Source: Candidatus Omnitrophota bacterium
GTDB lineage: Bacteria; Omnitrophota; Gorgyraeia; Duberdicusellales; 4484-171
Assembly (NCBI GenBank): GCA_003154195.1
Contig: PMCS01000030.1
Location: 123,446 to 187,445 of the forward strand
Direction of reading: 5' to 3'
DNA: 64,000 nucleotides
Program-made: the position numbers and the translations under genes
Shown here: positions 13,293 to 53,053 of the stretch, piece by piece
How positions within the stretch are numbered: position 1 is the stretch's first letter
Layout: every line of letters starts with the position of its first letter
Notes under the pieces: model-generated
The model's database searches: none
Told to the model about the DNA's origin: nothing
Seen by the model: the letters and a program-made list of their open reading frames with translations, nothing else

Positions 13293-13435
13293 ACTCCCCA
13301 GAAAATAATTAATTAGTGCTCTCAAAAACCCGAAAAACGCAGAACTTCTTGGAACTACTCACCTTTTCGCTCCCGCAGTCAAATTAACACACCCAATATA
13401 TAGTGGTATCAAAAAAAATATACCATATATAGAAT

Positions 13436-13465
13436 ATTATAACAAATTATAACAGATTATAATTG
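13436..13465 (+). promoter_or_regulatory. three 10-bp phased direct repeats (ATTATAACAA / ATTATAACAG / ATTATAATTG) upstream of the HTH-pilMNOPQ operon
   Basis: Exact 10-bp periodicity in an AT-rich promoter region. An adjacent imperfect inverted repeat (TATATAGTGGTAT / ATACCATATATA) lies at about 13397-13431. Confidence 0.35.
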
Positions 13466-13508
13466 ATTAGTTGAAAGAAATGTATTTAAATATAAACGTA
13501 ACCAATTT

Positions 13509-13706
13509 ATGAAAAAGATGAGAAAACAGAGAATAACACGATTGCTGAGCGTAGATGAGCTTGCCGATTATTTGGGTTTGCAAAAGCAGACTATTTATAA
13601 TTGGTTAAATCAAAAAAAGATTGCCGGGATAAAAATCGGCAAGGTCTGGCGTTTTGAGCGGAAATATATTGATGAATGGCTTACTAAATTGCAGCAGGGG
13701 CAATAA
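13509..13706 (+). CDS. small helix-turn-helix DNA-binding protein (excisionase/MerR-like HTH family)
   Basis: 65 aa. LSVDELADYLGLQKQTIYNWLNQKKIAGIKIGKVWRF is typical of Xis-family HTH_17. Its stop abuts the pilM start. Confidence 0.5.
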   Translation: MKKMRKQRITRLLSVDELADYLGLQKQTIYNWLNQKKIAGIKIGKVWRFERKYIDEWLTKLQQGQ

Positions 13707-15188
13707 ATGGCTAAAAAGAAAATAGGTTTATACATGGGGGTTAATTCTTTAGGCGGCGTTGTTGTGGAAAACCGAAAGCTCATTTCTTCGGTAAAATATG
13801 ATTTATCTTCTCTGGAAGAAGAGACCAAGGTGGAAAATTTAAACGAAGAAGTGAAGTGGGAGGCATTGATCAATAAAACTTTACGCGAGATGAAAGCTGA
13901 GGGGAAAGAGGTCTGCGTTTCCCTGGCCGATAAAGATTTTATTTTCCGGTCATTCGAAATGCCCTTGATGAGTAAACGTGAAATCGAATCGTCGCTCAAT
14001 TATGAAATCGAAAAATATATACCGTTTAAAGTAGAAGAGCTGCTGTGTGATTTCAGCTACGCGGCGTTTCCCCGCGAAAAAAAGATAACTATTTCTTTCG
14101 TGGGCATACGCGAGAGTACGCTCAACCGCAGCAGCGAAATATTCACCCGTTTGGGTTTAGAACCGGTTGTGGTTGAGCCTTCCGCTCTTTCCCTTGTCCG
14201 TATTCTGAAATCGATGAAAGGGTATGCCAACTTAAAGAATTTTGCCCTTTTGGATTTTACCGAGAACGAGGCGTACCTGACTTTTTTTTACTATGACCTC
14301 CCGGTGTTCAACCGTTATTTTGCCATACCCAAGAACGAAAGCGGCATCGACCTTGAGAAATTCATTGAACCGATACGCTTATCTTTCCAATATTTCCAGC
14401 GGGAATTTAAATCTTACGAATTAGATAAATTCATCATTATCGCCGACGCGAATAACGAAAAATTAACGGCGATGCTAAAAGAAGAATTGCAGACCAATAT
14501 CGAGTTGATTACCGCCGTTAATTTTACCGGTAAAGATCCCAGCTATGTGGAAAACCTTAAAGCGCTGGGCATTGCCGACCGGGATAGTTTTAGCTACAAG
14601 TTTAAACCGGTTTTTTTGAAAAGGACGAAAGAACAATTGACCACGGGAAAGGTTATCAAGGATGTTCCTTTACAGCCCGGGTTAATCATTCCGCTGATGG
14701 TTGTGGCTGCGATAATCTATTTTACGGCGGTATTGTTCTGGTCCAATGATATATCCGCCCGGCAACGGCAGATGAAACAGGAAGAAGACGCTTTGGTTAT
14801 ACCCGAATTTTTTAAAAATTTAAACTGGCAAGAAAGAGACGGCGCCTTAAAGAAAAAAGTCGAAGCAAACAACGCCTTGAAGTCTGTGGCAAGGATTTTG
14901 AAGAAAAGCTTTCCTTTTCTGGAGACGATCCCGGCTGTCCTTCCCGAAGGTTTATGGCTGGAAAGTTTTAGTCTAGGCGGCGAGTCAGGAAAATATAAAG
15001 GGACAATCGCCGGTTACGTTTTCCTGGGCGACGGCGACAAGGAAAGGCTCGCCATAAATGATTTTATTTCCAACCTGAAATCACGTAAAGAGATAAAAAG
15101 TATTTTTTCGGATATCAGTTTAGGGGCATCGCAAAAAACGGAATCGAACGGTTTTAATGTTACTTCTTTCAGCATGACACTGGAGTAG
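13707..15188 (+). CDS. type IV pilus assembly protein PilM fused to a PilN-like TM/periplasmic segment
   Basis: Actin-like PilM-type N-terminal ~300 aa, a single TM helix (LIIPLMVVAAIIYFTAVLFW) near aa 320, then a periplasmic segment. It sits directly upstream of the pilOPQ genes. Confidence 0.6.
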   Translation: MAKKKIGLYMGVNSLGGVVVENRKLISSVKYDLSSLEEETKVENLNEEVKWEALINKTLREMKAEGKEVCVSLADKDFIFRSFEMPLMSKREIESSLNYEIEKYIPFKVEELLCDFSYAAFPREKKITISFVGIRESTLNRSSEIFTRLGLEPVVVEPSALSLVRILKSMKGYANLKNFALLDFTENEAYLTFFYYDLPVFNRYFAIPKNESGIDLEKFIEPIRLSFQYFQREFKSYELDKFIIIADANNEKLTAMLKEELQTNIELITAVNFTGKDPSYVENLKALGIADRDSFSYKFKPVFLKRTKEQLTTGKVIKDVPLQPGLIIPLMVVAAIIYFTAVLFWSNDISARQRQMKQEEDALVIPEFFKNLNWQERDGALKKKVEANNALKSVARILKKSFPFLETIPAVLPEGLWLESFSLGGESGKYKGTIAGYVFLGDGDKERLAINDFISNLKSRKEIKSIFSDISLGASQKTESNGFNVTSFSMTLE

Positions 15189-15192
15189 AACA

Positions 15193-15672
15193 ATGGTGCA
15201 ACGATTTAAAAATATCTTGATCATCATCGCGGTTATCGCGGTTACTTTTATTATGATTAAGAATAAGTACGCTGATTATGACGCGCAAAAAAATAATATT
15301 GAATCCGACCGCACGGGTTTAGAAAAGAAAAAATTATTGGCAAAAGTCGGAGATAGCGTAGCGCGGGAATATGATGAAACCATTAAAAATTTCTCCTTTA
15401 AGGACGAGGAGGAGTTTAAAAAATTTGTGGGAGATGAAGCCGGCGAGCATAATGTCGTGGTTGATTCTTTCCGTCCCGCTAAAACCGATAAAGGGGTTTA
15501 TCTGGAGATAAAAATAGAGATTGTTTCGCCGTCGCCATACAAGAATGTGGCGGATTTTGTGAAAGCGCTGGAAGGGCAAAACATAGAGATTTTGAAGCTG
15601 GAAATAAAAAATATTTCCGAAAACGCAAGGCAGGCATTAATTGCGGTACGAGGAATAATTCCCAAGGTGTGA
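15193..15672 (+). CDS. PilO-like pilus assembly protein
   Basis: N-terminal TM helix and a charged coiled region, positioned between pilM/N and pilP. Confidence 0.45.
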   Translation: MVQRFKNILIIIAVIAVTFIMIKNKYADYDAQKNNIESDRTGLEKKKLLAKVGDSVAREYDETIKNFSFKDEEEFKKFVGDEAGEHNVVVDSFRPAKTDKGVYLEIKIEIVSPSPYKNVADFVKALEGQNIEILKLEIKNISENARQALIAVRGIIPKV

Positions 15673-15676
15673 CGCT

Positions 15677-16024
15677 ATGCGGAAAATAATTTTTCTCGCG
15701 GGAGGGATAGTTTACGTGATTTGTTTCAGCTTTCTGGGTTATGCCCAGGAGGCTCGCCGCGACCCTTTCGCGTCGTTACTTCCCAGAAAAACCCCGGTTG
15801 CGGATAATTCGCCACCTTCGGTTGAACGGGTAATAACGCCGCCGACGGTGAATATCCAGGGTTTGCTTTGCGGTACGAATATGCCGATGGCAATCATCGA
15901 TGGCGAGGTTTATAAAGAAGGCGATATCCTGGATAAAAGCGGAGCTAAATTATATAAAATAGAGAAAAATAAAATTTGTATCATTTATCAGGGGAAACCG
16001 TTCGACGTGATTATGGAGCAATGA
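15677..16024 (+). CDS. PilP-like pilus assembly lipoprotein
   Basis: Signal peptide plus the conserved RDPF motif. It is immediately upstream of the secretin. Confidence 0.45.
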   Translation: MRKIIFLAGGIVYVICFSFLGYAQEARRDPFASLLPRKTPVADNSPPSVERVITPPTVNIQGLLCGTNMPMAIIDGEVYKEGDILDKSGAKLYKIEKNKICIIYQGKPFDVIMEQ

Positions 16025-16055
16025 CCGGGGCGCGTAGTTTCAAATTTAAAATAAT

Positions 16056-17645
16056 ATGGTTATTCCTGAGCATACCTTGGGCGGATTGAGGGAGAAAAGA
16101 TTGAGAAAATATATTATTACGGCGATTTGTTTATGCATCGCTTTTTTACCGGAGGCGGGATTGCCGCAAGGGGATGTCGATAATATTTATGGCGATTATG
16201 CCATCGGCAAATCTCCCCAAAAAGTTTCCCTGGATCTTAGGGCCGCGAATCTTAATGATGTGTTAAAGATGCTTTCTCGGCAAACCGGCCTTAATTTTGT
16301 TTCCACGGAAACAGTTAAGGAGAGAGTCTTGACTCTGTATATGGATAATGTTCCCTTAAAAGAGGCGATGGATATAATTTTTAAGGCGAATAATTTAGGC
16401 TATGATTTTTATCCGGAAGCGAAGGTATTCGTGGTCAAGGAGCTGGGCAATCCTGCTATTGAAGTAAAAACCAAAGTTTACTATTTAAAATATATAACCG
16501 TCAATTCTTCGAACGTAAAAAGCGTTATTTCCGCCGGCGGCGAAACGGCAAAGACTCCCGGGGGCGGCGGGGGGCCAGGCGGCGGAGCTTCTTCCAGGGG
16601 CGGGGGCGCAGCGGCCGGCGGTTCGGGCGGCAGCCTTACGGATTCATTGAAGAACATGATGAGCGAATTTGGCAAGATATCGGAAGACCCGTTGACCAAC
16701 TCTTTGATTATTACCGATATCCCTACGCGCTTTCCTTTAATCGAGGAGTTGCTTTCCAAGCTGGATGTGCCTATCCCGCAGGTGATGATTGAAGTGGAGA
16801 TGCTTGATGTTTCCAGGGGGCTTATCGATCAATTAGGATTTAATTTTACCAACGGGTTTATCGCTACTTTTACGCCGGGGGGGTTCAGCACGCCATTCCC
16901 GTTGAAGGCTAAAGATAACTTCAACCTGGTTAATAAATTTTCTCCTATTTCTAATCTTGGCACGCCTGGTGGTCTTTTGAGCAACCTTGACTTCAGCAGT
17001 ATGCAAATGGTTATGCAATTTTTGAATAAAGACACTTCAACACGATTCTTAGCCCGGCCCAGGATATTGACTCTGGTTAATGAAAGCGCGGAAGTGGATT
17101 TAACGATGGATGAAGTAGTGAGCGCGGTGGGTACAAGTTCTCAAGGGACCGGACCAGCGGTAACTACTACTACGATTGAGCGAAAAGAAACCGGCACCAA
17201 GCTGACGGTTACTCCCCAGGTTAATCTGGAGACCGGGGAGGTTATCATGTCGCTGAACGTGAGCAACAAAGAATCGAAGATTTCAACCCTTACAGCAGCG
17301 ACTAAAGACATTGAAACGCGCGGCACAAAATCCATGGTACGCTTAAAAGACGGCGATACTCTTTTAATCGGCGGCCTCATCCGGAAAACCGACGAAGATG
17401 CTGTTACGAAAATTCCTTTTATTTCCGAGATACCGGTTTTGGGCAGGTTATTCCGGTATAAAAACACCAATCATACCGAACGTGAACTTTGCGTTTTCTT
17501 AACTCCGCATATAATAATCCCCTCAGCCGGTTCTTCTCCGGAGATTAAAAAGGAAGTTTTCCCTAAAGAAAGTTTTCAAAGGGAACAGGCCAACTACGCT
17601 AAGCAGGATGCCGTAAGGTCTTCGCTGGATAAATTCTCCCGTTAA
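16056..17645 (+). CDS. pilQ: type IV pilus secretin PilQ
   Basis: C-terminal secretin domain (LLIGGLIRKTDEDAVTKIPFISEIPVLGRLF), secretin-N domains and a Gly-rich linker. Confidence 0.85.
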   Translation: MVIPEHTLGGLREKRLRKYIITAICLCIAFLPEAGLPQGDVDNIYGDYAIGKSPQKVSLDLRAANLNDVLKMLSRQTGLNFVSTETVKERVLTLYMDNVPLKEAMDIIFKANNLGYDFYPEAKVFVVKELGNPAIEVKTKVYYLKYITVNSSNVKSVISAGGETAKTPGGGGGPGGGASSRGGGAAAGGSGGSLTDSLKNMMSEFGKISEDPLTNSLIITDIPTRFPLIEELLSKLDVPIPQVMIEVEMLDVSRGLIDQLGFNFTNGFIATFTPGGFSTPFPLKAKDNFNLVNKFSPISNLGTPGGLLSNLDFSSMQMVMQFLNKDTSTRFLARPRILTLVNESAEVDLTMDEVVSAVGTSSQGTGPAVTTTTIERKETGTKLTVTPQVNLETGEVIMSLNVSNKESKISTLTAATKDIETRGTKSMVRLKDGDTLLIGGLIRKTDEDAVTKIPFISEIPVLGRLFRYKNTNHTERELCVFLTPHIIIPSAGSSPEIKKEVFPKESFQREQANYAKQDAVRSSLDKFSR

Positions 17646-17849
17646 TTCGGCTACTGTCTCAATCTACGCCCCCGCCATCCCATAGATGGCGAGGTCTCGT
17701 CAATTCGTTTAACGAATTGACGGACTTCGGGCTTGATTTCGGTGAAGTCTCATTAAATATTTCCTTGCCCCCCGTAGTATTTCTATTATAATAAAATATA
17801 ACCTGGAATATAATTATAAAGCATAGAGTTCTCTTTTCAGGATATCGGG

Positions 17850-17990
17850 GAATCAGGATGTCAGGATTTGGGGATTGGGAAATCGGGGGATTAGGGAAAT
17901 GCCGAAGAAGCGATAGCTGTCAGCCAAATATCCCAATGCCCTAATTTCCAAATCCCAATTGCCTAATATCCTAATTCCTTTATTATTACA
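17850..17990. repeat. long imperfect palindrome built from GGGATT(A)GGG / CCCTAATCC-type short repeats (family B-like)
   Basis: Left arm GGATTTGGGGATTGGGAAATCGGGGGATTAGGG; right arm CCCAATGCCCTAATTTCCAAATCCCAATTGCCTAATATCC. Confidence 0.45.
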
Positions 17991-18041
17991 CTTGGTTAGC
18001 GCCGAAGGCACGCTAAGCTCAGTTAAAGGGGTTATAAACCA

Positions 18042-19751
18042 ATGGCCAGATATAGAAAAATAGGGGATATCCTGTTAGCGGAAGGGATTATCACCGAAAC
18101 ACAAATTAAAGAAGCGATTGCCGCCCAGCAAAAAGAAGGCGGGAAGTTGGGAGAAATCCTGGTTAAGCTGGGATATGTCACGGAAGAGCAAATCGTTATC
18201 GCCTTAAGCAAACAATTATCCATTTCTTATGTTTCCCTTGTCTCGGGAAAATTAAAGCCGGCCGCCGATCAGGAGCTGGAAGAGCTCGTTCCCCACGACT
18301 TTGCCGTGAGAAACCTGGTGCTGCCGCTTTTTCGCAATATCAATTCTTTAACGGTAGTGATGTTCAATCCCCTTGATTTAATCCTCATCGATAATTTAAA
18401 GAAACTGACCGGATGCGAGATAAATCTTATCATATCCACCAAAGCGGATATTTTAAAAGCAATCGAAGCGTTTTACGGCAAAGACAGCCTTTTGAAGGAT
18501 ATGATTGATGCGGCCGCCGGCGATAATATTGTCACCGCGGAGATCCGCAATGTGGCGCAGAGCGATTTAAGCATCGATAAACTTATCGAACAGGCGGAAG
18601 AGGCGCCGGTAATCAAGCTTGTTGATTTGATCATTAAGCAGGCGATTGACGAAAGCGCTTCGGATATCCACATCGAGCCCCAGTTTGATAAATTCAGCCT
18701 GCGCTATAGAATAGACGGTATGCTTTATGAGATGCCTTCCCCGGCCATGTCGTTGTATTCGCCGATCGTATCGAGGATTAAAATACTCTCCAAAATGGAT
18801 ATCGCGGAAAAACGCCTTCCTCAGGACGGAAGCTTTATGGTGAAGATGGGCGAACGGATCATCGATTTGCGGGTATCAAGTTTGCCTACGATTTACGGCG
18901 AGAAGGTCGTCATGAGGATTCTTGATAAAACGCGTATCCCCCTTGATCTGGCAAAACTGGGATTTTTGCCCCAGGAATTGGAGATGATCAGAAAAGGCAT
19001 ATCCTCGTCTTACGGTTTGGTTTTTCTTACCGGGCCTACGGGCAGCGGAAAATCAACGACGCTTTACGCGGCGCTTAATGAGCTGCGCTCGTCGACGACC
19101 AATATCCTTACCGCGGAGGACCCTGTCGAATACCGGGTCGAAGGGATCAACCAGGTGCAGGTTAAACCGGATATCGGCTTGACTTTTGCCACAGCCTTAC
19201 GCTGTTTTATGCGTCAGGACCCCGATATAATCCTGGTAGGAGAAGTGCGCGATTTGGAAACCGCGGAAATCTGCATAAAAGCGGCTTTGACCGGGCATCT
19301 GGTTTTATCTACCCTGCATACCAATGACGCGGCTTCTACTGTCACCCGGTTGGTGGATATCGGGTTGCCCAGTTATCTGGTTACGGCAAGTTTACGTTTG
19401 ATTGTTGCCCAACGATTAATACGTAAACTCTGCCCTCAATGCAAAGAGCCCTATGAGGTTAAGGAAGAAGAAATTCCCAAGGGGGTAAAGCTTAATTCCC
19501 CCGTGATTTATAAAGCGAAAGGCTGTGAAAAATGTAATTTTATCGGTTATAAAGGAAGGATGGTTATCCCCGAGATCATTCTGATGAGCGATGAATTGCG
19601 GGAAGCCATTCATAACAAGTGCAGTCCCGCTCAGTTTATGGAGATAGCCCGGCACAAAGGAACAATGACCCTTTTGGAGAGCGGTATCAAAAGAATCGAA
19701 GAGGGCGCTACTTCTTTAGAAGAAGTTCTTTCTTCGACTACGATATTTTAA
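18042..19751 (+). CDS. pilB: type IV pilus assembly ATPase PilB (GspE family)
   Basis: N-terminal GSPII_E_N domain, Walker A GPTGSGKST and the tetracysteine motif CPQC...CEKC. Confidence 0.9.
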   Translation: MARYRKIGDILLAEGIITETQIKEAIAAQQKEGGKLGEILVKLGYVTEEQIVIALSKQLSISYVSLVSGKLKPAADQELEELVPHDFAVRNLVLPLFRNINSLTVVMFNPLDLILIDNLKKLTGCEINLIISTKADILKAIEAFYGKDSLLKDMIDAAAGDNIVTAEIRNVAQSDLSIDKLIEQAEEAPVIKLVDLIIKQAIDESASDIHIEPQFDKFSLRYRIDGMLYEMPSPAMSLYSPIVSRIKILSKMDIAEKRLPQDGSFMVKMGERIIDLRVSSLPTIYGEKVVMRILDKTRIPLDLAKLGFLPQELEMIRKGISSSYGLVFLTGPTGSGKSTTLYAALNELRSSTTNILTAEDPVEYRVEGINQVQVKPDIGLTFATALRCFMRQDPDIILVGEVRDLETAEICIKAALTGHLVLSTLHTNDAASTVTRLVDIGLPSYLVTASLRLIVAQRLIRKLCPQCKEPYEVKEEEIPKGVKLNSPVIYKAKGCEKCNFIGYKGRMVIPEIILMSDELREAIHNKCSPAQFMEIARHKGTMTLLESGIKRIEEGATSLEEVLSSTTIF

Positions 19752-19799
19752 TAAAAATAACATAAAAACCAAAAAACTGAAAAACCAAAAAACTTAACA

Positions 19800-20174
19800 A
19801 TGAGCGATATTTTTAGATTCAGAGAATTTCCGGTATATAAAGACGCAAGAAAATTGAGAAAAGATTTAAAGCTGCTAAGTAAAGAAAAATTCCCCGGAAC
19901 CGAACAATATTGTTTAACATCTCAGTTGTGGAGAGCATTGGATTCGATTATTCTCAATATAGCCGAGGGTTCAGACAGATGTTCAGATACGGATTTCAGT
20001 AGATTTTTAAACAATTCCTTAACCTCCGTTAATGAAGTAGCCGCCCGTTTGGATTGTGCTTTAGATGATGGCTATATTACTGTAAAAGAGCAAGACATAT
20101 TTATTCCCTTGGCTGAAAATATTGCGAAACAGCTAAAGGCTTTTAGTTCAAAAGTACGAAATGATAATGGTTAG
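19800..20174 (+). CDS. four-helix-bundle protein (23S rRNA intervening-sequence protein family)
   Basis: 124 aa. The YKDARKL...FPGTEQYCLTSQLWRALDSIILNIAEGSDR...FLNNSLTSVNEVAARLDCALDDGYI pattern matches PF05635-type proteins. It is flanked by inverted A/T-rich repeats at 19752-19799 and 20175-20215. Confidence 0.7.
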   Translation: MSDIFRFREFPVYKDARKLRKDLKLLSKEKFPGTEQYCLTSQLWRALDSIILNIAEGSDRCSDTDFSRFLNNSLTSVNEVAARLDCALDDGYITVKEQDIFIPLAENIAKQLKAFSSKVRNDNG

Positions 20175-20215
20175 TTTCTCGGTTTTTAAGTTTTTTCGTT
20201 TTTAGGTTACCTACC

Positions 20216-21436
20216 ATGCCCCAATACCTCTACGTTGCTAAAACAAAAGACGCGCGTCAGATAAAAGAGAAAGAAGAAGCCGGCTCCCGGGAAGAGCTGG
20301 TGGCGCGGCTGCGCAGCCGCGGGCTGTTTATTATCTCGCTGGCGGAGGTGCAGGTTCAGAAAGGTCCCACGCTTTTTTTTATGAAGAAAAGCAAGCGCGG
20401 ATCGGTCAATCTTTACGACCTGACGCTTTTTTCGAGGAACCTGGCTACTACCTTGTCGAGCGGCGTAACATTATTGCGCAGCCTGGAGATACTCGCCGTT
20501 CAAACCGAGAGCGCTAAATTGGAAAAAATACTGAAAGCCTGCTCCGGATACATAAAAGGCGGGCTTTCTTTAAGTGATGCCATCGCCAAGTACCCCAATG
20601 TTTTTTCGCCGCTCTGGCGGGGTATTGTGGAAGTGGGGGAGGCCAGCGGAAATTTACCGTCGGTTCTGGAGAGATTGGCGGATTATTTAGAGATGCGCAT
20701 GGATTTTGAGCGTAAAGTGCAGAGCGCGATGGTATACCCGGCGATAATTCTTGTCGTTGCGGGCGGCGCGATGGTTGTTTTTTTTAAGTTTATCCTTCCT
20801 AAATTTACGGAAATATTCAAGCAATTTAATATGAAATTACCCCTGTCGACGCAGATTATGTTCACGATCAGCCAAATTTTTGAAAAATATTTTATTTTAC
20901 TTTTGGGAGGAACTGTAGGTTTAGTGATTGCCGGTATTTATGCGATGAAACAGCCCGAAGTAAGAAAGGTGTGGGATAGAGTCAGCCTTAAATTACCGAT
21001 ACTGGGCCCTCTTCTCACTCTCACTGCTTTGGAGAGGTTTACTTCTACGATTAATATTCTTTTAGACAGCGGGCTTCCCCTGGTATTCAGCCTCGAAGTT
21101 TCGGCGAGAGGTATCGGCAATTCTCTTTTGGAACATAGCATCCTGGCGGTTAAAGATAAGGTTAAGGAGGGTTCTCCTTTATCCGACGAATTAAGGAAGC
21201 TTAATATTTTTCCCGCTCTCGTATCGGAGATGTCCAAAATCGGCGAAGAAACCGGCAGTATGCCTGAGGTGTATAAAAAAATATCAGTATATTATCAAAA
21301 AGAATTATCGGCGCGCGTCGAGCGTCTTGTCGCGGCGTTCGAGCCGTTAATGATTGTTTTTATGGGACTGCTTATCGGAGCAATGGTTATTTCTTTATTT
21401 CTGCCCCTGTTTAAGCTTAGCTCGCCTGGCGGGTAA
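20216..21436 (+). CDS. pilC: type IV pilus inner-membrane platform protein PilC (T2SS-F family)
   Basis: Two T2SSF repeats and three TM segments. 406 aa. Confidence 0.9.
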   Translation: MPQYLYVAKTKDARQIKEKEEAGSREELVARLRSRGLFIISLAEVQVQKGPTLFFMKKSKRGSVNLYDLTLFSRNLATTLSSGVTLLRSLEILAVQTESAKLEKILKACSGYIKGGLSLSDAIAKYPNVFSPLWRGIVEVGEASGNLPSVLERLADYLEMRMDFERKVQSAMVYPAIILVVAGGAMVVFFKFILPKFTEIFKQFNMKLPLSTQIMFTISQIFEKYFILLLGGTVGLVIAGIYAMKQPEVRKVWDRVSLKLPILGPLLTLTALERFTSTINILLDSGLPLVFSLEVSARGIGNSLLEHSILAVKDKVKEGSPLSDELRKLNIFPALVSEMSKIGEETGSMPEVYKKISVYYQKELSARVERLVAAFEPLMIVFMGLLIGAMVISLFLPLFKLSSPGG

Positions 21437-21603
21437 TACTAAACCACCGACGAATTCGGTGGCAATCCACTCAAAAGTAACGTATCGGCGAATTGGGGAA
21501 TTTGCCATTCTCTAAACGCGGCAACCGCTGATCTGGCTAAGCATTCCAGCGGTAAGGCGGAGGCGGCGCTTCATATCTACTGGCGCGCTACCTAAAAAAA
21601 ACA

Positions 21604-21632
21604 TTTGACTTTTGCCAATGGAATATTATGAT
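21604..21632 (+). promoter_or_regulatory. putative sigma70 promoter (TTGACT-N17-TATGAT) for the pilin gene
   Basis: A -35/-10-like pair about 75 nt upstream of ATG 21709. Confidence 0.3.
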
Positions 21633-21708
21633 TAATAGTATAGAAATCAACAAAAAGTATTTCATTTATACATACCGGAAAGTTAATAAAGAAAAAAGGA
21701 GGATACTT

Positions 21709-22143
21709 ATGAGAAGAAAAAGCTTTACGCTTTTAGAATTGGTAATCGTTCTTATTATTCTCGGCGTTTTAGCTACATTAGGCATTTCGCAATACATGAG
21801 AAGTATTGAGCAATCTCGCGGCGCCGAAGCGCGGTCAATATTGGGCCAGATTCGCACTTCTGTTTTAGGCTATTATATGTCAATAAGTACTCTGACCGGT
21901 ATCGATAATACTGCTGTCGGCATAGGAACAACTAACGATCTTATTCCTTCTTCTTGCCGAGCCAGTCATTATTTTAACTACGCTTTGAGCCTTATAACTT
22001 CTACCACTCTTAGAATTGATGGAACTCGTTGCAGCGCCGGCGGCAAGACGCCCACGGCTAGTGTTGGTATAGGGGGTATTCAGTTGACGGTTGACGCTAA
22101 CGCCGGTACCGATACCTGGTCGATGTCCCCGGCTTATAGGTGA
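21709..22143 (+). CDS. type IV pilin (prepilin-type N-terminal domain), major pilin candidate
   Basis: RBS AAGGAGG, then MRRKSFTLLELVIVLIILGVLA (class III signal peptide with E at +5; Ser at -1). The ORF track start at 21628 lies upstream of the RBS. Confidence 0.7.
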   Translation: MRRKSFTLLELVIVLIILGVLATLGISQYMRSIEQSRGAEARSILGQIRTSVLGYYMSISTLTGIDNTAVGIGTTNDLIPSSCRASHYFNYALSLITSTTLRIDGTRCSAGGKTPTASVGIGGIQLTVDANAGTDTWSMSPAYR

Positions 22144-22291
22144 TACCCGGCGTAATATTTTTGAAATTAATAAGAGGTTTTTATTCCCAGCTTAATCGCT
22201 TTGGTATAACAGGGGTTACTAAGGGTATAGTTTTTTTCAAGGTAATAAGCGATAGGCAGGTATAAATAAGCAGGGGCAAAATTTTGTTTTA

Positions 22292-22336
22292 GGGCGATAG
22301 CTTTTTGAAGAAAAGCTATCGCCCTTTTTGTTTTTT
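22292..22336 (+). terminator. rho-independent-type terminator hairpin, probably bidirectional
   Basis: GGGCGATAGCTTTTT / AAAAGCTATCGCCC stem followed by TTTTTGTTTTTT, between the convergent pilin and minus-strand genes. Confidence 0.55.
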
Positions 22337-22441
22337 CCATAGCCAGGTATATTTTGCCTAAATTAAAATGGGCTTGTAAGTCAAAAGGATTTGTTTTTAT
22401 CCGGGCCCGGTAATAAGAGATTGTTTTTTTGCTTAGCCGGT

Positions 22442-24442
22442 TTATTTTTTCGTTTTTCCGTTTGCTTCGTAAAGTCCGGTAAGAAGCGGGTAAGCCGATA
22501 AAAAATCCGGGTCAAGCTTTATCGCTTTTTCCAGATTTTTTATCGCATCTTCCGGCAAGCCGGTTTTTCTGTATAAAACTGCCAGATTGTAATAAATTCC
22601 CGGCGTTTCATTATTCATCGCGATAGTCTGATTATATTCTTCTATAGCTTTTTTGTAATTGCCCAGCGCGGAATACGCTAGCCCGAGGTTATAGTGCGCC
22701 GGGGCGCTGGGCGTTGTCTGGAGAGATTTTTTCAGATACCGGACAGCTTTCGGGATATCTTGATGATTAAAATAATACATCCCCAGCGCGTTATATACCC
22801 ACTCGTGTTCGTTTTTTAGTTTCGGTTCTATCGCCAGGGTTTTTTTATATAATTTTACCGCTTTTCTAAAATCGCCCGCCATATAATATTCGTCAGCTAA
22901 ATTTTTCCACATCCGCGCGCTTTTCGGCGAGTATCGTAACGTCCGTTTGTAAAAAGCGAGAGGTTCCCGCCAATAATTATTTTGTTGTATCGTGCGGATA
23001 GAATAGAAAATCACCAGCGATAGCGTCAGAAGTATCAACGGCAGTCTTAAATTATTTTTTTTGTATAGAAAGGATAATTTTTCGGCGATAACAAGGAAAA
23101 AACCGATCGAGGGGAGATAGAGCCAGTGTTCAGCCATGTAAGCGTTTATTGGGTAGATATTCGCATAGGGAAGAAGGGTAAGAAAAAACCAGAGAATAGA
23201 AAATGTTACGAGATAATTTTCCTTTCTTTTTTTGAACGCATAAACAAGCAGACCTGAAAAAATAGTTGCGCCGGCAATTATTTTTGCGATATTCAAAGCG
23301 CCGGGGGCTTTGCCGTATTCTACGTGGAGGTTGAACGGCAATATCAATAATTTGAGGTAATCGAGAAGCGCGCAGAAAAAATTAATTGTCCTTACGGTAA
23401 AAGGAGGGGTTTCAACGCCGGCGAGCGGTAATTTTAACAGCGCGTGCCGGGCGATAAGATAAAGGGAGCTTAAAATAAAAAGAAAAAATATTTCTTTTCT
23501 TTTTATTCTCCTTCGCCGAATACCCTGCGGCTTGCCGCAGGGATGAAGGCTCTGCTGCTTGGCTTCGGAGAAATGAAGCTGGATACCCCGCGGCTTGCCG
23601 CGGGGAGAACATTGGTGCTTCATTTTACCGCAGAAAACCGCCGTTGTAAGGCGGCGGATGAATGCGGTAAAATAATCCCGCCGTATTTTGGCGGGATTAT
23701 ACCGGTAAGCCCCCGGCTCTACGAGCCGAAGGGTTCGGAGAGCCACCGGCGTAAGCCGGTGGTAGTTCACTGCCGCGATAAAGGATGGCGCGGTTGTTTT
23801 ACCCGATGGAGAAAGTTTAAGTTGATTGTTTTTTTGATCAAGATAAGCATAGAGAACCAGCAAGGCGGGCACAACGATTACCGACGATTCTTTTGACAAT
23901 AGCGCCGCCAGGTATGAAGCGGTTAACGCGGCGCGCCATCGTAATTCAGGTTCGCGGCAATACTTTATGTAAGACAATAGCGCGAGAAGAATAAATATTG
24001 CCGATAACAAATCGGCCCTGCCGGATATGAAAGAAACTGCTTCCGTGTGAAGAGGGCAGGCGATAAATAATACGCCGGTAATAAACGCGGTCAGATAATC
24101 GCCGGCAATAACAGAAATCAGCCAATATAATAATAGCGCTACGCTTATGTGCAGGAGGATATTGGTTAAACGGTATCCCGCGGGGTTTAATTTCCACAAC
24201 GCGTAGTCGCCGGCGTAGGTTACGATTTCCAGCGGCCGGTAAAAAGCGTTATCCCGGTCTAACCCCCCGGTGATATTAGTTTTGAATACTTCGCCTAAGC
24301 CGTTCCAGCTTCTTATGTGATTGTTGCGGACGACTAAAACCTTGTCGTCCCAGATAAATTTACCGCCCAGCGAGCCGGAATAAATAATAAATCCCAGGGA
24401 GGCGATTAAAAAAAGATGCGCAAAAATATATTTTTTAGCCAT
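22442..24442 (-). CDS. polytopic GT-C-type (TMTC/PMT-like) membrane protein with C-terminal TPR repeats
   Basis: N-terminus GGKFIWDDKVLV... with many TM helices, and at least five C-terminal TPR-like repeats. It contains an atypical GC-rich, hairpin-dense segment (23523-23763). Confidence 0.55.
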   Translation of the reverse strand: MAKKYIFAHLFLIASLGFIIYSGSLGGKFIWDDKVLVVRNNHIRSWNGLGEVFKTNITGGLDRDNAFYRPLEIVTYAGDYALWKLNPAGYRLTNILLHISVALLLYWLISVIAGDYLTAFITGVLFIACPLHTEAVSFISGRADLLSAIFILLALLSYIKYCREPELRWRAALTASYLAALLSKESSVIVVPALLVLYAYLDQKNNQLKLSPSGKTTAPSFIAAVNYHRLTPVALRTLRLVEPGAYRYNPAKIRRDYFTAFIRRLTTAVFCGKMKHQCSPRGKPRGIQLHFSEAKQQSLHPCGKPQGIRRRRIKRKEIFFLFILSSLYLIARHALLKLPLAGVETPPFTVRTINFFCALLDYLKLLILPFNLHVEYGKAPGALNIAKIIAGATIFSGLLVYAFKKRKENYLVTFSILWFFLTLLPYANIYPINAYMAEHWLYLPSIGFFLVIAEKLSFLYKKNNLRLPLILLTLSLVIFYSIRTIQQNNYWREPLAFYKRTLRYSPKSARMWKNLADEYYMAGDFRKAVKLYKKTLAIEPKLKNEHEWVYNALGMYYFNHQDIPKAVRYLKKSLQTTPSAPAHYNLGLAYSALGNYKKAIEEYNQTIAMNNETPGIYYNLAVLYRKTGLPEDAIKNLEKAIKLDPDFLSAYPLLTGLYEANGKTKK
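23523..23763. repeat. cluster of five GC-rich perfect palindromes inside the TPR/GT-C CDS
   Basis: CCCTGCGGCTTGCCGCAGGG, CCCCGCGGCTTGCCGCGGGG, CCGCCGTTGTAAGGCGGCGG, ATCCCGCCGTATTTTGGCGGGAT and CCACCGGCGTAAGCCGGTGG, spaced about 40-60 bp apart. Confidence 0.5.
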
Positions 24443-25124
24443 TTATTTTCCAGCAGATTATTTCTTTGAATGTTCCCCAGATTGTTTTTAAATTAGCTAC
24501 TTTAGATTTACCGCCGGCGCGGGGGAGGTTGACGATGGAGATTTTTTTAAAGCGAAATCCTTGTTGGTAGGCTTTGATCACTAATTCAAAATTGAAGACG
24601 AATCGAGAATTTACGCATATTTTATCAAGAATTTTACGATGGAACAAATAAATCCCTTCGAGTGTGGGAAATTTACCGAAAAGGAGCCGCAATAACAGCC
24701 TTACCCCGGCGGACATGATTTTTCGGAATAATGAAGTATTGCGTTGATGATAAACCGTCGTGACGAAGTCAACGCTGTCGTCAAGCGCTTTCGCGCATTG
24801 GCCAAGCGCGGCAGGTTCGATTTGGCCGTCGGCAGGAAAAAATGATATCCAGCGATAACGCGCCTGCCGGAAACCGTCCGCCAGGCATTTGCCGATACCT
24901 TGTTTGAGCGTATGGGTAATAATAGTTACGTGGGTGTTTTTTTTAGACAGGCGGTCGGCAATTTTTGGCGTTTCATCGGTTGAGCCGTCGTTGATAATAA
25001 TAATTTCGTAGGCGCTGCCGGATATTGTTTGTAATACGGCGTTGACACTTTCCGCAACTTCGCCGAGGGTTTTTTCTTCGTTATAGGCGGGGATAATAAC
25101 CGAAAGATCAATCATAATATTCAA
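24435..25124 (-). CDS. family 2 glycosyltransferase (polyprenyl-phosphate sugar synthase / Dpm1-like)
   Basis: VIIPAYNEE ... INDGSTDET (GT-A DxD region). It overlaps the downstream gene by 8 nt. Confidence 0.8.
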   Translation of the reverse strand: MNIMIDLSVIIPAYNEEKTLGEVAESVNAVLQTISGSAYEIIIINDGSTDETPKIADRLSKKNTHVTIITHTLKQGIGKCLADGFRQARYRWISFFPADGQIEPAALGQCAKALDDSVDFVTTVYHQRNTSLFRKIMSAGVRLLLRLLFGKFPTLEGIYLFHRKILDKICVNSRFVFNFELVIKAYQQGFRFKKISIVNLPRAGGKSKVANLKTIWGTFKEIICWKING

Positions 25125-27058
25125 TTACGAATGGGAAGAACAATTTCGCCGATGGCAACGCTTCCGTCGGGGTTAATCGATTTTTGGCTTATTTTTTGAT
25201 CGAAAGTAAAAAATGTGCCTCTGTCCATCGAAGCTAATGTTAAGAGCAGAGCATATTTTCCTTTCGGTAAGTAACCCGGTATGGTCATAATATAGTAATC
25301 GTTGATAGTTTCGTCTTTTTGCCAGCGCTGGGTAGGATATATTCCATAACAAAGTTGGCGGATAGTTTCGTAGCGGGTTTTGCCGTTCTGGTCGACTAAT
25401 CGGATAAGCATCCCCAGGGTATTGTCATTTGGGTTTAAACAGCGCCAGGTAAAAGAAAATTTAATTGCCGTTGTCCCGCCTGCCTTTACCGGCGAATAAT
25501 TATAATCCTGGAGGCTGATTTTACCGGCAAGCGCGGCTGACGGTGTTTTATCAAATCCGCGTATCTTCGCCGGGATAATTTCGTATAATTTTTTATTGCC
25601 GGGGTGATTTTTTTTAAAAAGGGCGATGCTGTCAATAAAATCTATTACTTGCCAATTATTTCCTTCAAGAAAACGACGCATGTTTAAATCGGAATCAGGT
25701 TTGCGAAAGTATATCGTTGTATAGATATCATTAAAATCAATAAGCGCGTATTCGATATTGTCGGGGATAGCGTAAGGAACCCCGGGCCTCAGTTCGCCCT
25801 GGTAGATATAGTGGAAGGCATATAAGTAGCGCCGGTTCGACAGGTGGCTTAAAAATTCAAAAGTGCTCACAACCGCCGCGTTTTTGGGAATCATGGCAAT
25901 CAAGCGTTGTTTTTGTTTGGCGGTATTTTCTCTCAATAGGAGCACTAATTCTTTATTCATAGAATGGATCGGGCCGTAGATTATGTTGCTGATAATCGGC
26001 AGGATAATAATGTAGGAAAAGATGCGGCGCGGCAGATTGCCGCCGGAAAATTTTAACAAGCCGTATATCGCGGAAATATAAATGAAGGGGGTCATCGCGA
26101 TAGTGTAATGATTGACGATACTATGTTCAGCTATTCGTGTCGAAAGAAGGTGCTGCAGGATATTGAGCGCGCAAATCATTAATTCTTTGAGGGCAAAAAG
26201 AGAAAAGAAACCAGCGGGCATTAATATTTGCAGGATGAAATAACCGTTATCTTCTTGCAATAATGGTTGGAATAATATGGATGGCCGTGTAAGGATATTT
26301 TTAAATATTTCCGGAAAATCTTTTCCTAAATAGGCGTAAAACTGTTCATAGTTTACACCGGTGCGAAAATGCGGCAGAAAAACAAAAATCCCCAGATATA
26401 ACCAGACGAGGCTTATCGTTATGGGCAGTATTGACCAGCGCCACGGTTTTTTATCCAGCGCCGCGTATATTCCTATCATCAGCGTAACCAGGGTCATATC
26501 CAGGCGGCAAGCAATCGTGAGCAGGATACAGGTTATGTACCACCAGAAGCGGTCAGTCTTTAAACAATAAAATGCCCATAACAGCGTCAACCCGGCTAAG
26601 ACTAAATCAAAGTATTCAAAAAGCGCAAGAAACCATAGCGCGGGATATAAAAGATAAGAAACGGCAAACGCGGCGCCTAACCTTGGGGAGTGAGCGTGGC
26701 GGCCGATTAGGAATATCGGCATCGCTCCGGCGGCGAGGATGATTACTTTTATTATCAACATTGCCTGCGGAGAACAAAAAAACAAAGCATAAAGAAGGCT
26801 AAAGGGATAAGCAATAATTTCAATAGCATTACCCCATATCGTGGTATTGTCGATAATCGAAGCGCGGGGGCTGCCATGCAGGATATTCCAATATTTTTGC
26901 AAATGGATGGCAAAATCAAAATCAATATGAGAAAATGAGTTGTATTTCCATAAGCAGATGGCGCTGAAAATCACTGTATAGATCAGCATTCCCAGCAATA
27001 CAATAAAAAAGTATTTTTGTTTTAAAATGTAATTAAACGCTATTTTAAGATTTTTCAT
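25121..27058 (-). CDS. large polytopic membrane protein (DUF2079-like, putative GT-C-type glycosyl transferase)
   Basis: About 12 predicted TM helices plus a C-terminal beta-rich soluble domain. The ORF extends to 27208, but Met 27058 (MKNLKIAF...) is preferred because it leaves a divergent intergenic region. Confidence 0.45.
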   Translation of the reverse strand: MKNLKIAFNYILKQKYFFIVLLGMLIYTVIFSAICLWKYNSFSHIDFDFAIHLQKYWNILHGSPRASIIDNTTIWGNAIEIIAYPFSLLYALFFCSPQAMLIIKVIILAAGAMPIFLIGRHAHSPRLGAAFAVSYLLYPALWFLALFEYFDLVLAGLTLLWAFYCLKTDRFWWYITCILLTIACRLDMTLVTLMIGIYAALDKKPWRWSILPITISLVWLYLGIFVFLPHFRTGVNYEQFYAYLGKDFPEIFKNILTRPSILFQPLLQEDNGYFILQILMPAGFFSLFALKELMICALNILQHLLSTRIAEHSIVNHYTIAMTPFIYISAIYGLLKFSGGNLPRRIFSYIIILPIISNIIYGPIHSMNKELVLLLRENTAKQKQRLIAMIPKNAAVVSTFEFLSHLSNRRYLYAFHYIYQGELRPGVPYAIPDNIEYALIDFNDIYTTIYFRKPDSDLNMRRFLEGNNWQVIDFIDSIALFKKNHPGNKKLYEIIPAKIRGFDKTPSAALAGKISLQDYNYSPVKAGGTTAIKFSFTWRCLNPNDNTLGMLIRLVDQNGKTRYETIRQLCYGIYPTQRWQKDETINDYYIMTIPGYLPKGKYALLLTLASMDRGTFFTFDQKISQKSINPDGSVAIGEIVLPIRN

Positions 27059-27251
27059 ATCATCAACAATACACTGTTTAAAAGGATTAGTCAAGAATTT
27101 TCCGGTAAGAAAATTACGCCGGATAGAGACGGCCAGGTATTCGGCGAAAAGCTTTTTTGTTTTTGTCGTTAGCCTGCCGCTAAACACCTCGCCGGTAATT
27201 TTGCACAAAACAGTTGCAGTTTAAGGTTGGCCGGTGTATTATTATTTCTTG

Positions 27252-37581: not shown

Positions 37582-38167
37582 CTAAAAAACTCGTTTTCCA
37601 AACGAATTTTTTAGTTAAGAAGGAAAAAATGCCGCCGTTTTTTGAAAGTTTCCTAAAGCCAAAATATAAGGAATAAAATAAATTCCTTGCAGCCGGCTCG
37701 CCTCACGGCGAAGCCGTGGGCTATCCCTGGGGCAAGCCCGCAGCCCCGTTTCCCTGATATATTGATTAAGGTTCGGGGCGTCCCGTACCTTAGTATACTA
37801 TCTAGGGTAACGGGACAGGGTATTTCGCTGGCTGCATGGCGCTTTGCGCCACCGGAATTTCTTTTATTTGTTTTGTCCGCCACAAATAATAAATTATTCA
37901 GGCGGATCCGCCTTCGGCGGAAAAACCTATGCTGCGGTTTTTCCGCTTGCAAAGCGAGACTTCGCCAAAAGATGGAAACTTTTGGCGAGCAAACTTTCCC
38001 TTTCGTTTCCGAAACGGGAAATTGGATTTTCCAATTTCCCGCGGCAAAAGACGCCATTCATCCCCGCTGCAAGCAGCGGGAAATTCTGGCGGATTTTGTT
38101 AAAAAGAGATTTGGGCGGCATTTTTTCCCGGAGCCGGGAAAATGCGCCAAACGCATTTTACCGGCTA

Positions 38168-39625
38168 ATGATAAAGAAAACCTCAGATTTTCAAACTTAC
38201 CTCGAAGATACATCCAATTTGAAAGGGCATGCTGAATGCCTTTATCTTCCCGAATCTAAAGAAGAAGTCCGGTTCTTAATCGGCGAGTGCAATCGGTCAA
38301 AGTCCCCCCTGACGGTTTCCGCGGGGAGGACCGGGACTACCGCCGGTTGCGTCCCCTTGTCCGGAGCCTTACTTTCTTTGCAAAATCTCAATAAAATTAT
38401 CAATATTGATGCCGGGGTAAAAGAAGCGCGCGTGGAAGCGGGAGTTTTGCTGGAGGATTTGTTGAAAGAGGCAGTTAAATTTAATCTTACCTTACGGGCG
38501 TCGCCTACCGAGCCTCTGGCTTATGCCGGTGGGGCGGTTTCAACCGCCGCTTCCGGCGTGCGGGGCTTTGGCTATGGTTCAATACGAAACTATGTCCGCG
38601 CGATCGAGATTGTCCTGGCGGGAGGCGATGTTCTTAAGATACAACGGGGAAAAATTTTTTCCCTGGGGAGGGCTTTCGATTTCACCTGCGGCGGTAAAAG
38701 ATTTAAATTCAATCTCCCTTCCTACGACATGCCGCCGGTTAAGTCTCAGGCCGGTTTTTTTGTTAAAGATAATATGGACTTGATCGATTTATTCATCGGC
38801 AGTGAAGGCGTGCTGGGGATTATTACCGAATGCTGTCTTTCGCTGCAAACAATCGCGCCGTACATTATCGACGGGTTGGTTTTTTTTGACTGTGAAGAGA
38901 AAGCGTTGGGGTTCAGCGGGAGCGTAAAAAGCCTTAAGCGGGATAACTTGATAAATCCGGCGTCGCTGGAGTTTTTTGATCATAATTCTTTAGAGTTGTT
39001 AGGGCCGGTTTATTCTTTTATCCCCGCTTCGGCCGCGGCGGCAATTTATTTCGAGCAGGAAGCCGAAGATAAATCGTCGTCGGAGCAATTAATGGATACC
39101 TGGGCGAAGCTTATCGAAAACGGCGGCGCGTCCCTGGATACTTGTATCATCGCCGATAATCCCAATGCCCGCCGGAGCATTTTTGAATTCCGGCATAAAG
39201 TGCCGCAGCTCATCAACGAATTTTTAAGAGCGTACGGCCAACAGAAGATTGCTTCCGATATTGCCGTGCCGCCGGAACATTTTGCGGCGATGTATGAATC
39301 CTATAAATCAACCGCCCGGGAAACGGCTCTGCGATACGTCAATTTCGGCCACATCGGCGAAGGGCACCTGCACTTTAATTTCCTGCCGCGCAGTGACCAA
39401 GAAAGCGTCCGGGCCGGGGAAGGCATCGCCCGCCTTTGCCGTCAAGCGGTTGCCTGGGGCGGGACAGTCTGCGCCGAGCATGGGGTAGGCAAGGTTAAAA
39501 AACCTTACCTTAAGATTATGTACGGCGATAAGCATATTAAAGAAATGGCGGCGTTGAAAAAATATTTCGACCCTAATTGCATACTCAATTTGGATAATAT
39601 ATTTGATAAGGAGTTTTTATTGTAG
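38168..39625 (+). CDS. FAD-linked oxidase (GlcD / D-lactate dehydrogenase-like, PCMH-type FAD binding)
   Basis: FAD_binding_4 motifs (RTGTTAGCVP, GSEGVLGIITE) and a C-terminal FAD-oxidase_C domain. The ORF track extension to 37844 runs through a hairpin-dense leader and was rejected. Confidence 0.75.
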   Translation: MIKKTSDFQTYLEDTSNLKGHAECLYLPESKEEVRFLIGECNRSKSPLTVSAGRTGTTAGCVPLSGALLSLQNLNKIINIDAGVKEARVEAGVLLEDLLKEAVKFNLTLRASPTEPLAYAGGAVSTAASGVRGFGYGSIRNYVRAIEIVLAGGDVLKIQRGKIFSLGRAFDFTCGGKRFKFNLPSYDMPPVKSQAGFFVKDNMDLIDLFIGSEGVLGIITECCLSLQTIAPYIIDGLVFFDCEEKALGFSGSVKSLKRDNLINPASLEFFDHNSLELLGPVYSFIPASAAAAIYFEQEAEDKSSSEQLMDTWAKLIENGGASLDTCIIADNPNARRSIFEFRHKVPQLINEFLRAYGQQKIASDIAVPPEHFAAMYESYKSTARETALRYVNFGHIGEGHLHFNFLPRSDQESVRAGEGIARLCRQAVAWGGTVCAEHGVGKVKKPYLKIMYGDKHIKEMAALKKYFDPNCILNLDNIFDKEFLL

Positions 39626-52710: not shown

Positions 52711-52869
52711 GTTATTTTTTACGCAGTAAAAAATAACCTTGGACCGCTGGCGCGGATCGGGAAAGTTCCGGTTCAGGCATTTTTCCCGGTTTGGCAAACT
52801 CTTTCAAAATACCTCAACTCCCCGAGTCAAATCAATCCGGGAAAATCGATAACCCTTTATTCTCCTTCG

Positions 52870-53000
52870 CTGAAGTTCGCCTTCGCCAAGACTTCGGCGA
52901 GATTCCTCCGAAGCTCGAAGAGCGAAGGAGAACTTCGGCGAAATCTCTCCGAAGCTAAAAAAAAGCGAAGGAGGACTTCGGAGAAATGAAGCTATATGTC
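52870..53000. repeat. three roughly 40-bp tandem direct repeats (CTTCGGCGAGATTCCTCCGAAGCT... variants)
   Basis: Each unit carries a GAAG...CTTC hairpin. A family A-like palindrome GGTTATTTTTTACGCAGTAAAAAATAACC lies at 52711-52740. Confidence 0.5.
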
Positions 53001-53053
53001 GCGGGGAGGAAATTTGGGCTTCATTATTTTCTCCTTGGTGGTAAAATCTTATT

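Follow-up and report, generated by a model that had tools for sequence, protein, structure and literature searches.

The capture of palindromic repeat DNA in frame by protein-coding genes is best documented in Rickettsia and has often been viewed as a peculiarity of reduced intracellular genomes; to our knowledge, hairpin repeats that add a new loop to a protein have rarely been documented. Repetitive extragenic palindromic (REP) sequences and bacterial interspersed mosaic elements (BIMEs) of Enterobacteria and Pseudomonas are associated with REP-associated tyrosine transposases (RAYTs). They consist of short GC-rich imperfect palindromes in mosaics, lie mostly outside genes and often just after stop codons, and keep their stems by compensatory change. 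As summarized in PMC10969869, Rickettsia palindromic elements (RPEs) are palindromic sequences that lie in frame in unrelated protein genes, dozens of which have been hit (Ogata et al. 2000); pneumococcal BOX elements, which occur with RUP/SPRITE clusters, have fixed end modules and a variable middle (Croucher et al. 2011); and intragenic enterobacterial repetitive intergenic consensus (ERIC) and other enterobacterial small mobile sequences are imperfect palindromes of ∼127 bp that are usually intergenic and transcribed (Delihas 2007). Here, we describe a GC-rich hairpin cluster inside a membrane protein gene in a 64,000-nucleotide (nt) stretch of Candidatus Omnitrophota DNA (contig PMCS01000030.1, positions 123,446 to 187,445; hereafter, the window). 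We consider it likely that this cluster is foreign composite DNA, made of two dispersed modules (A and B) and carried in frame in a loop of the GT-C/tetratricopeptide repeat (TPR) gene.

The host gene and the insert that we delimited within it are as follows:

22442..24442, minus strand: host gene for a membrane protein of 666 residues, PMT/GT-C-like at the N terminus and with TPR repeats at the C terminus
23504..23824, minus strand: composite insertion, ∼321 nt, codons ∼207 to 313, boundaries good to a few nucleotides either way

The PMT family of Pfam (PF02366) matched the N-terminal membrane part of the open reading frame (ORF) at 24.8 bits (cut-off, 22.7), many TPR families matched its C terminus, and the AlphaFold model of the protein reached a pTM of 0.75. 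Foldseek matches of the protein in the PDB were mostly to the TPR domain and were uninformative on the membrane part. The protein has 1175 homologues, the named ones being Omnitrophota "tetratricopeptide repeat proteins." Across the 120 matches listed, those other than the protein itself covered merely 43 to 54% of the query, because the window protein carries ∼107 extra codons. In an alignment with 13 homologues (42 to 45% identity), the ∼107 residues of the insert were missing from all 13: between the invariant residues Y198 and Y328, homologues have 22 residues (for example, YHY-SF-KKKLKVKEFLSILSIALIY) versus 129 in the window protein. Both flanks of the gap align well, with YAYLDQKNN on one side and, on the other, KRKEIFFLFILSSLY against KVKEFLSILSIALIY in the homologues. 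Outside the insert, all invariant and nearly invariant residues of the family are intact, including the DD motif, YRP, and HTEAV..GR. A first-pass annotation of this DNA had proposed an in-frame insertion of 240 bp at 23523-23763. The foreign in-frame segment stands, but it measures ∼321 bp, of which those coordinates cover only part. A loop sequence shared with orthologs, named in that annotation as the observation that would speak for an ancestral feature, was found in none of the 13 homologues.

The inserted peptide has 107 residues and a net charge of +19, and it lies between the hydrophobic helices 178-198 and 318-336 (187-207 and 315-336 by a second delimitation). These helices, which are conserved on both sides of the insert, are transmembrane. 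In the AlphaFold model, pLDDT fell below 50 exactly for residues 204-311, with the flanking helices predicted confidently, so the basic loop is probably disordered; a count of the helices, together with the Lys-rich character of this loop in homologues, suggests that it faces the cytoplasm. Peptides predicted from the insert or downstream of it include LVEPGAYR, DYFTAFIR, GIQLHFSEAK, and QQSLHPCGKPQGIR.

Within 23523-23763, enumeration detected six inverted repeats with perfect stems:

23523-23542, no strand: hairpin 1, 8-bp stem CCCTGCGG / CCGCAGGG, loop CTTG, within module A
23586-23605, no strand: hairpin 2, 8-bp stem CCCCGCGG / CCGCGGGG, loop CTTG, within domain I of module A
23622..23673, no strand: hairpin 3, outer stem TTTTACCGCA/TGCGGTAAAA; inner stem at 23638-23657, 6 bp, loop of 8
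23672-23700, no strand: hairpin 4, perfect 11-bp stem ATAATCCCGCC / GGCGGGATTAT, loop GTATTTT (7)
23710..23732, no strand: hairpin 5, an optional sub-module, perfect 6-bp stem at 23714-23728, loop of 3
23743-23762, no strand: hairpin 6, 8-bp stem CCACCGGC / GCCGGTGG, loop GTAA

Four stems of at least 8 bp fall within 241 nt, a density matched by none of 2000 dinucleotide-preserving shuffles (mean, 0.03), and the folding z-scores against shuffles were -7.3 and -8.0 for the two strands. The six stem-loops measure 15 to 29 nt with a stem GC of 55 to 100%; the GC content of the insert is 56% versus 42.5% for the remainder of the host gene. Hairpin 5 has six Watson-Crick pairs on either strand and 10 pairs, including two G.U pairs, on the gene strand. 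What had been annotated as five perfect palindromes is therefore a genuine cluster of perfect stems, but there are six of them, and they are stem-loops rather than strict palindromes because their asymmetric loops are not self-complementary. The repeat-family listing recovered the two near-identical hairpins, 43 nt apart, that had also been noted. Directly beside the insert, within conserved host codons (KRKEIFFLF), lies a 13-bp perfect AT-rich inverted repeat (23474-23507), which arises because Lys (AAA/AAG) and Phe (TTT/TTC) codons are complementary and which probably does not belong to the element.

Only two of the six frames are open across the insert, and both had been noted in the first-pass annotation: the 666-residue ORF, which reads through with its frame preserved, and one antisense ORF:

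23543..23896, plus strand: antisense ORF, 117 residues, not a gene

The antisense product matched no Pfam family, and its sole match among 1.84 billion representative proteins (P0123) was a chance match to a repetitive 1929-residue protein. This ORF is a by-product of self-complementary sequence.

Self-comparison of the window showed that an intergenic segment at 52856-53030 is related to the insert, with TTATTCTCCTTCGC and CTTCGGAGAAATGAAGCT in common. Scanning metagenomes with a two-part pattern built from the common motif returned three contigs (L030, L031, and L032). The copies define module A:

23503..23626, minus strand: module A, ∼123-nt dispersed repeat, gene strand 5'-AATGAAGCAC ... 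GGCGAAGGAGAATAA-3'
23571..23625, no strand: domain I of module A, outer stem AAATGAAGC/GCTTCATTT around hairpin 2
52856..53030, minus strand: degenerate module A copy with domain I, tandem CTTCGG/CCGAAG "C" repeats, and terminal GAAGGAGAATAA, lacking hairpin 1
L030 2266-2395, L031 9645-9772, and L032 1562-1689: complete module A copies, 85 to 91% identical to 23503-23626
L033 13040-13324: split module A copy

The three complete copies have sharp boundaries and unrelated flanks. One fills the tpiA-secG spacer (L032), and the other two each lie between two co-directional genes. The degenerate copy is also intergenic, between fusA and a hydrolase gene and antisense to both neighbors. In the split copy, a 42-nt perfect hairpin is nested inside domain I, and the middle consists of tandem CTTCGGAGA/TCTCCGAAG C repeats. 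Across the alignment, domain I and the terminus are common to the copies, and the C repeats, hairpin 1, and the nested 42-nt hairpin vary between them. Scanning viral contigs with a pattern of the module A terminus gave one match, a partial, divergent relative with module A termini in a contig of 58% GC (L044); the same scan with a domain I pattern gave none. In genome contigs, 28 matches to CTTCGGAGAAATGAAGCT all came from unrelated taxa and were set aside as chance. Although module A begins with ATG and ends with TAA, we rejected the idea that it is a mini-ORF, since the two codons are not in the same frame and stops occur early in the copies of L030 and L032.

In L031, module A is in frame with a downstream ORF resembling a periplasmic binding protein (9641-10576), and the frame is the one that the GT-C gene uses. 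The fusion reads ...IQLHFSEAK.QSLHPCGKPQGIRRRRI followed by the signal-peptide-like IISFICFIFLLIFAG, with no canonical start codon between the Shine-Dalgarno (SD) sequence of the module and the hydrophobic segment. From its reading frame, L031 may be a second case of translated module A, possibly as an N-terminal fusion.

The remainder of the insert is occupied largely by a second repeat:

23627..23798, minus strand: module B, ∼170-nt dispersed repeat with hairpins 3 to 6
23799..23824, minus strand: ∼26 nt at the edge of the insert that faces the gene's 5' end, within the homologue gap and outside the nhmmer match of module B

Module B was found by a protein search with the inserted peptide, which gave two matches, P0121 and P0122. 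Both proved to be gene-caller extensions across intergenic DNA. P0121 overlies L043 1052-1215, which is 92% identical to window positions 23623-23788; P0122, present on 10 contigs, lies upstream of a DUF3309 gene, with module B at 9992-10134 of L033 (84 to 97% identical at 10000-10119, without hairpin 5). Hairpin 5 is present in the window and in L043 and absent from L033 to L042. A scan of viral contigs with a pattern of the module B head gave no match, and 28 viral loci matching TTTACCGCA...TGCGGTAAAA were rejected as module B, being a conserved 68-nt stretch of an unrelated phage gene. The ∼26 nt at 23799..23824 may either extend module B or represent loop codons specific to the lineage.

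On the gene strand, the insert reads B then A, abutting at GCGGTAAA/ATGAAGC (junction at the slash). At the L043 and L033 sites, module B occurs without module A. Each module thus exists on its own elsewhere, between genes, and the insert combines the two. About nine module copies are known, eight extragenic and one genic; the unbiased sample of ∼68 kb holds two copies of module A, one of them degenerate, and a single module B, and the ∼4 kb added by extending the window contained no new copies. The search for further copies of the hairpin DNA, recommended in the first-pass annotation, thus located intergenic copies both elsewhere in the window and in metagenome contigs related to it. Its proposal of an inserted REP- or MITE-like element (MITE, miniature inverted-repeat transposable element) holds insofar as this is dispersed hairpin repeat DNA placed in frame in a coding loop, a reading supported by the homologue gap (13/13) together with the intergenic copies, but not insofar as it implied one element. 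We found no evidence for the recombination hotspot offered there as an alternative.

These copies also bear on whether the protein itself evolved a longer loop, ancestrally or within the lineage, with incidental hairpins in the coding sequence. The open frame, a basic loop of the kind expected on the cytoplasmic side, and the lack of a close orthologue showing an empty site are all compatible with such an expansion. However, the same DNA occurs as two separate, non-coding modules beside unrelated genes, which effectively refutes it; other module A copies (L030 and L032) have stops in the frame used here, coding constraint would not be expected to produce six perfect stems, and the loop is absent from every aligned homologue. 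We therefore regard a coding origin as very improbable.

Neither is the insert an artifact of assembly. The exact 666-residue protein was found on 10 contigs from NCBI (GCA_003154645.1), JGI, and ENA assemblies, and the 2001-nt gene, insert included, was identical base for base in 8 of the 8 contigs fetched, which were assembled independently. It is true that repeats are a classic cause of misassembly and that the gene is interrupted by an N gap in one ENA scaffold. However, the eight contigs come from different samples and assemblers, and the reading frame is kept at both junctions, so that a chimera or collapsed repeat is almost certainly not the explanation. The allele is fixed in a near-clonal population. 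Two apparent variants were traced to assembly gaps: a 485-residue protein resembling a split gene (P0001) reflects a gene call truncated by the N gap (L029 2896-2953), and a 90-nt "indel" in L073 reflects an NN gap at 13014-13015.

The other copies probably come from the same genome or a very close one, given that both composition and sample co-occurrence agree. Tetranucleotide usage of L030 to L033 correlated with that of the window at r of 0.95 to 0.96, compared with 0.976 between the window halves and 0.03 to 0.6 for unrelated loci; these contigs also match the window in GC, and contigs encoding P0122 co-occur with GT-C contigs in three JGI samples. In a search with EF-G, the nearest relative besides the organism itself was 73% identical.

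Comparison of the copies, with 3 to 4 sequences per module, pointed to conservation of the stems. In three other copies, a C-G pair of hairpin 1 is replaced by T-A through changes on both sides of the stem; in hairpin 2, one pair is doubly compensated between copies. In L033, the inner stem of hairpin 3 has changed from CCGCCG/CGGCGG to CCACCAC/GGTGGTGG, which accounts for three doubly compensated pairs; in all, module A has 2 such pairs and module B has 3. In the consensus fold of module A, all eight pairs of the domain I outer stem are retained in four of four copies, and UCUCC is paired with GGAGA of the 3' end, likewise in all four. From these changes we infer that selection on nucleic acid structure has kept the hairpins. 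As to the form of that structure, G.U wobbles arising from single changes in hairpins 1, 2, and 5 pair on the gene strand only, the other strand having C.A mismatches, which points weakly to RNA on the gene strand; in hairpin 4 of L043, one change favors the opposite strand. At three or four sequences per module, the UCUCC:GGAGA pairing is only suggestive.

Such observations raise the possibility that the modules are not mere selfish DNA but strand-specific RNA cassettes dispersed between cistrons, each with a 5' stop codon (AATGAAGC), a 3' SD sequence (AAGGAGA), and an internal UCUCC:GGAGA helix able to mask it. These would be structured intercistronic or 5' untranslated elements on the gene strand that tune translation or mRNA stability, and the genic copy could affect the mRNA of the GT-C gene, perhaps through pausing, processing, or stabilization. 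Besides the wobbles and the consensus fold, the positions of the intergenic copies would fit. The TGA of the upstream gene lies inside AAATGAAGC, the first bases of module A (AAA TGA AGC), at L030 2388-2395 and L032 1562-1569; in L031, the upstream TAG (9646-9648) lies 1 nt before the module; GGAG of the L032 copy is 8 nt ahead of the secG ATG; and four of the five copies with a co-directional context are in sense orientation. However, four of five is not significant, and the 52856-53030 copy is antisense to both neighbors. The hairpin 4 change in L043 runs the other way. GGAGA and UCUCC also make up arms of the CTTCGGAGA/TCTCCGAAG repeats, which means that any SD-like appearance may be incidental. 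The comparison covers 3 to 4 sequences per module. With Rfam 15, only three tRNAs in the window reached threshold, and at 23200-24100 the best subthreshold matches (E of 0.12 to 0.4) were to unrelated families; intrinsic terminators were not above chance (three terminator-like sites versus 3.8 expected, with one weak site in the insert), and no terminator-like T tract occurs beyond chance. On balance, we consider a cassette function doubtful. If it were true, the GT-C copy, and possibly the L031 signal peptide fusion, would show cassettes turning into protein sequence.

We propose that modules A and B are small, non-coding, hairpin-rich repeats of an Omnitrophota lineage that normally reside between genes and would be spread by a trans-acting enzyme encoded outside the window. 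The composite would have landed in a short Lys-rich loop between two transmembrane helices of a glycosyltransferase-like protein, either because both modules arrived together or because one inserted beside the other. The gene would thereby have been retained as a single 666-residue ORF while gaining the basic loop of 107 residues. That ORF stayed whole because the insert length is divisible by three and the gene reads it in the only gene-strand frame that is free of stops; since one of three gene-strand frames is stop-free, an insertion in this orientation had a ∼1-in-3 chance of leaving the ORF intact. The enlarged protein may have been tolerated through the cytoplasmic facing of the loop.

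The same DNA origin is compatible with a different outcome, in which the insertion inactivated the gene and a young pseudogene is left with a frame open by luck. The ∼1-in-3 chance of an open ORF fits this as well; Omnitrophota genomes carry many paralogues (several matches on one contig), so loss could be cheap, and membrane insertion or translation could suffer from a +19 loop of 107 residues and from the strong folding of this part of the mRNA. Against inactivation, the family residues outside the insert are intact, the whole 2001 nt are free of frameshifts and stops, the overlap of the host gene with the upstream GT2 gene has been kept, and 8 assemblies carry one identical, fixed allele, although that identity also means that there is no variation on which to test selection. 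Because the family residues are intact elsewhere and the allele is fixed, we favor tolerance over pseudogenization, and we consider inactivation possible but unlikely.

Several observations weigh against in-frame insertion of a mobile composite that the host tolerated. Copy number is modest in the sole unbiased sample; no transposase or RAYT gene was found among the roughly 50 window ORFs scanned or annotated; and module A as a whole lacks terminal inverted repeats, with no flanking duplication in six copies. The nearest homologue of the 666-residue protein is merely 45% identical, and no empty site is available for comparison; as a result, the insert boundaries are good to a few nucleotides and a target-site duplication is not assessable. 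The common genome of L030 to L033 is deduced from composition and sample co-occurrence, and as regards expression of the gene and translation of the loop, the case is built on DNA sequence.

The host gene is the last of a minus-strand unit of three genes with overlapping stops and starts (DUF2079, GT2 glycosyltransferase, GT-C/TPR protein), which adjoins a cluster resembling type IV pilus and type II secretion systems (PilM, secretin, T2SSE, T2SSF, and pilins; region 12442-27208). Elsewhere in the window, a dense cluster of 6 to 7 perfect hairpins (stems of 7 to 12 bp) lies at 37900-38160, upstream of a FAD-linked oxidase gene. The ORF at 37844..39625 translates it as the first ∼108 codons, and the Pfam domains of that ORF begin after ∼38168. 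This intergenic cluster includes one weak match to hairpin 1:

38055..38085, plus strand: hairpin-1-like unit, TCATCC-CCGCTG-CAAG-CAGCGG-GAAATTC, E of 0.058

The unit has the same CAAG loop as hairpin 1 and a different but compensated stem. Perfect AT-rich hairpins of the form ...TTTTTT[GA]C-NNN-G[CT]AAAAAA... directly follow the ends of genes or tRNAs, for instance the stop codon of fusA and each of the two flanking tRNAs; they resemble intrinsic terminators that work in both directions, or else another family of repeats:

889-919, 925-951, 1021-1057, 1063-1095, 36623-36653, and 39659-39683: AT-rich hairpins
40052-40078, 40104-40126, 43115-43141, 46240-46266, 47505-47530, and 52709-52739: AT-rich hairpins

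A 139-nt intergenic element at 17839-17976 recurs at L031 5402-5539 with 78% identity; it forms a long imperfect palindrome with many GGGGATTGGGAAAT / ATTTCCAAATCCC motifs and belongs to a separate repeat family. The intergenic region 11724-11986 contains tandem units of ∼80 nt, each with a perfect hairpin TGAACATG AGTA CATGTTCA (11865-11884 and 11945-11964), and a short stretch is common to 63906-63970 and L031 2963-3025 (80% identity over 65 nt).

The locus offers a clean case of repeat capture in a free-living, uncultivated phylum, with traceable intergenic source modules and an allele fixed in wild populations. It suggests that the conversion of repeat DNA into new protein loops is a more general process, and it defines two previously undescribed modular families of hairpin repeats in Omnitrophota. 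The modules can also mislead gene callers, as in the spurious N-terminal extensions P0121 and P0122 and the 117-residue antisense ORF, and they may carry a regulatory function in operons.

Relative to known systems, modules A and B resemble REP sequences and BIMEs in being clustered mosaics of short GC-rich imperfect palindromes (15 to 29 nt here, ∼20 to 40 nt in REP sequences) that have compensated stems, are extragenic in eight of about nine copies, and often come directly after a stop codon, and they resemble the BIMEs of Escherichia coli in their architecture of end modules around a variable middle. They differ in forming a fixed multi-hairpin module of 120 to 170 nt, rather than single REPs in alternating orientation, and in a seemingly lower copy number. 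Alignments of modules A and B showed no common head comparable to the GTAG-like 5' head of REP sequences, each hairpin having its own stem and flanks, and no RAYT (Y1 transposase) was present among the window ORFs. Like MITEs, the modules are shorter than 500 bp, non-coding, multicopy, and strongly structured, with frames that are not conserved between copies. However, the ends of module A, AATGAAGCAC... and ...GGAGAATAA, are not mutually inverted, self-complementarity being confined to internal domains, and the six module A copies have only an A-rich 5' flank in common, with no target-site duplication seen. Since no GTAG head, terminal inverted repeats, or target-site duplications were seen and no RAYT was found among the window ORFs, we do not claim membership in either the REP or the MITE class.

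ERIC sequences are similar as imperfect palindromic repeats that are mostly intergenic and occasionally form in-frame fusions inside an ORF, but they are another sequence family in other hosts. The modular layout is closer to that of BOX elements: domain I is followed by a variable number of C repeats or a nested hairpin and then by hairpin 1 and the terminus, and hairpin 5 is optional in module B. As with BOX, RUP, and SPRITE repeats, elements are inserted beside or into one another, occupy transcribed intergenic sites, and have stable RNA folds. There is no sequence similarity to BOX elements, and the host differs; moreover, we know of no in-frame genic insertions of this kind for BOX elements.

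The closest parallel is with RPEs, in size (roughly 100 to 150 bp), in palindromic potential, and in the in-frame insertion that leaves the host ORF intact, with a gained peptide and an element that has no coding capacity of its own. There is no known sequence relationship, and the host, assigned by protein homologues, is Omnitrophota rather than Rickettsiales; we do not claim membership in RPE-1 to RPE-10. RPEs hit dozens of genes, whereas here one copy among about nine modules is genic and no other protein carries the peptide: the two matches of the peptide search were both spurious ORF extensions over intergenic copies, so recurrent insertion into many genes was not seen. The insert also combines two modules, and the frame used here is closed in other copies. 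In outcome, the locus is best described as the Rickettsia palindromic element phenomenon, arising in Omnitrophota.

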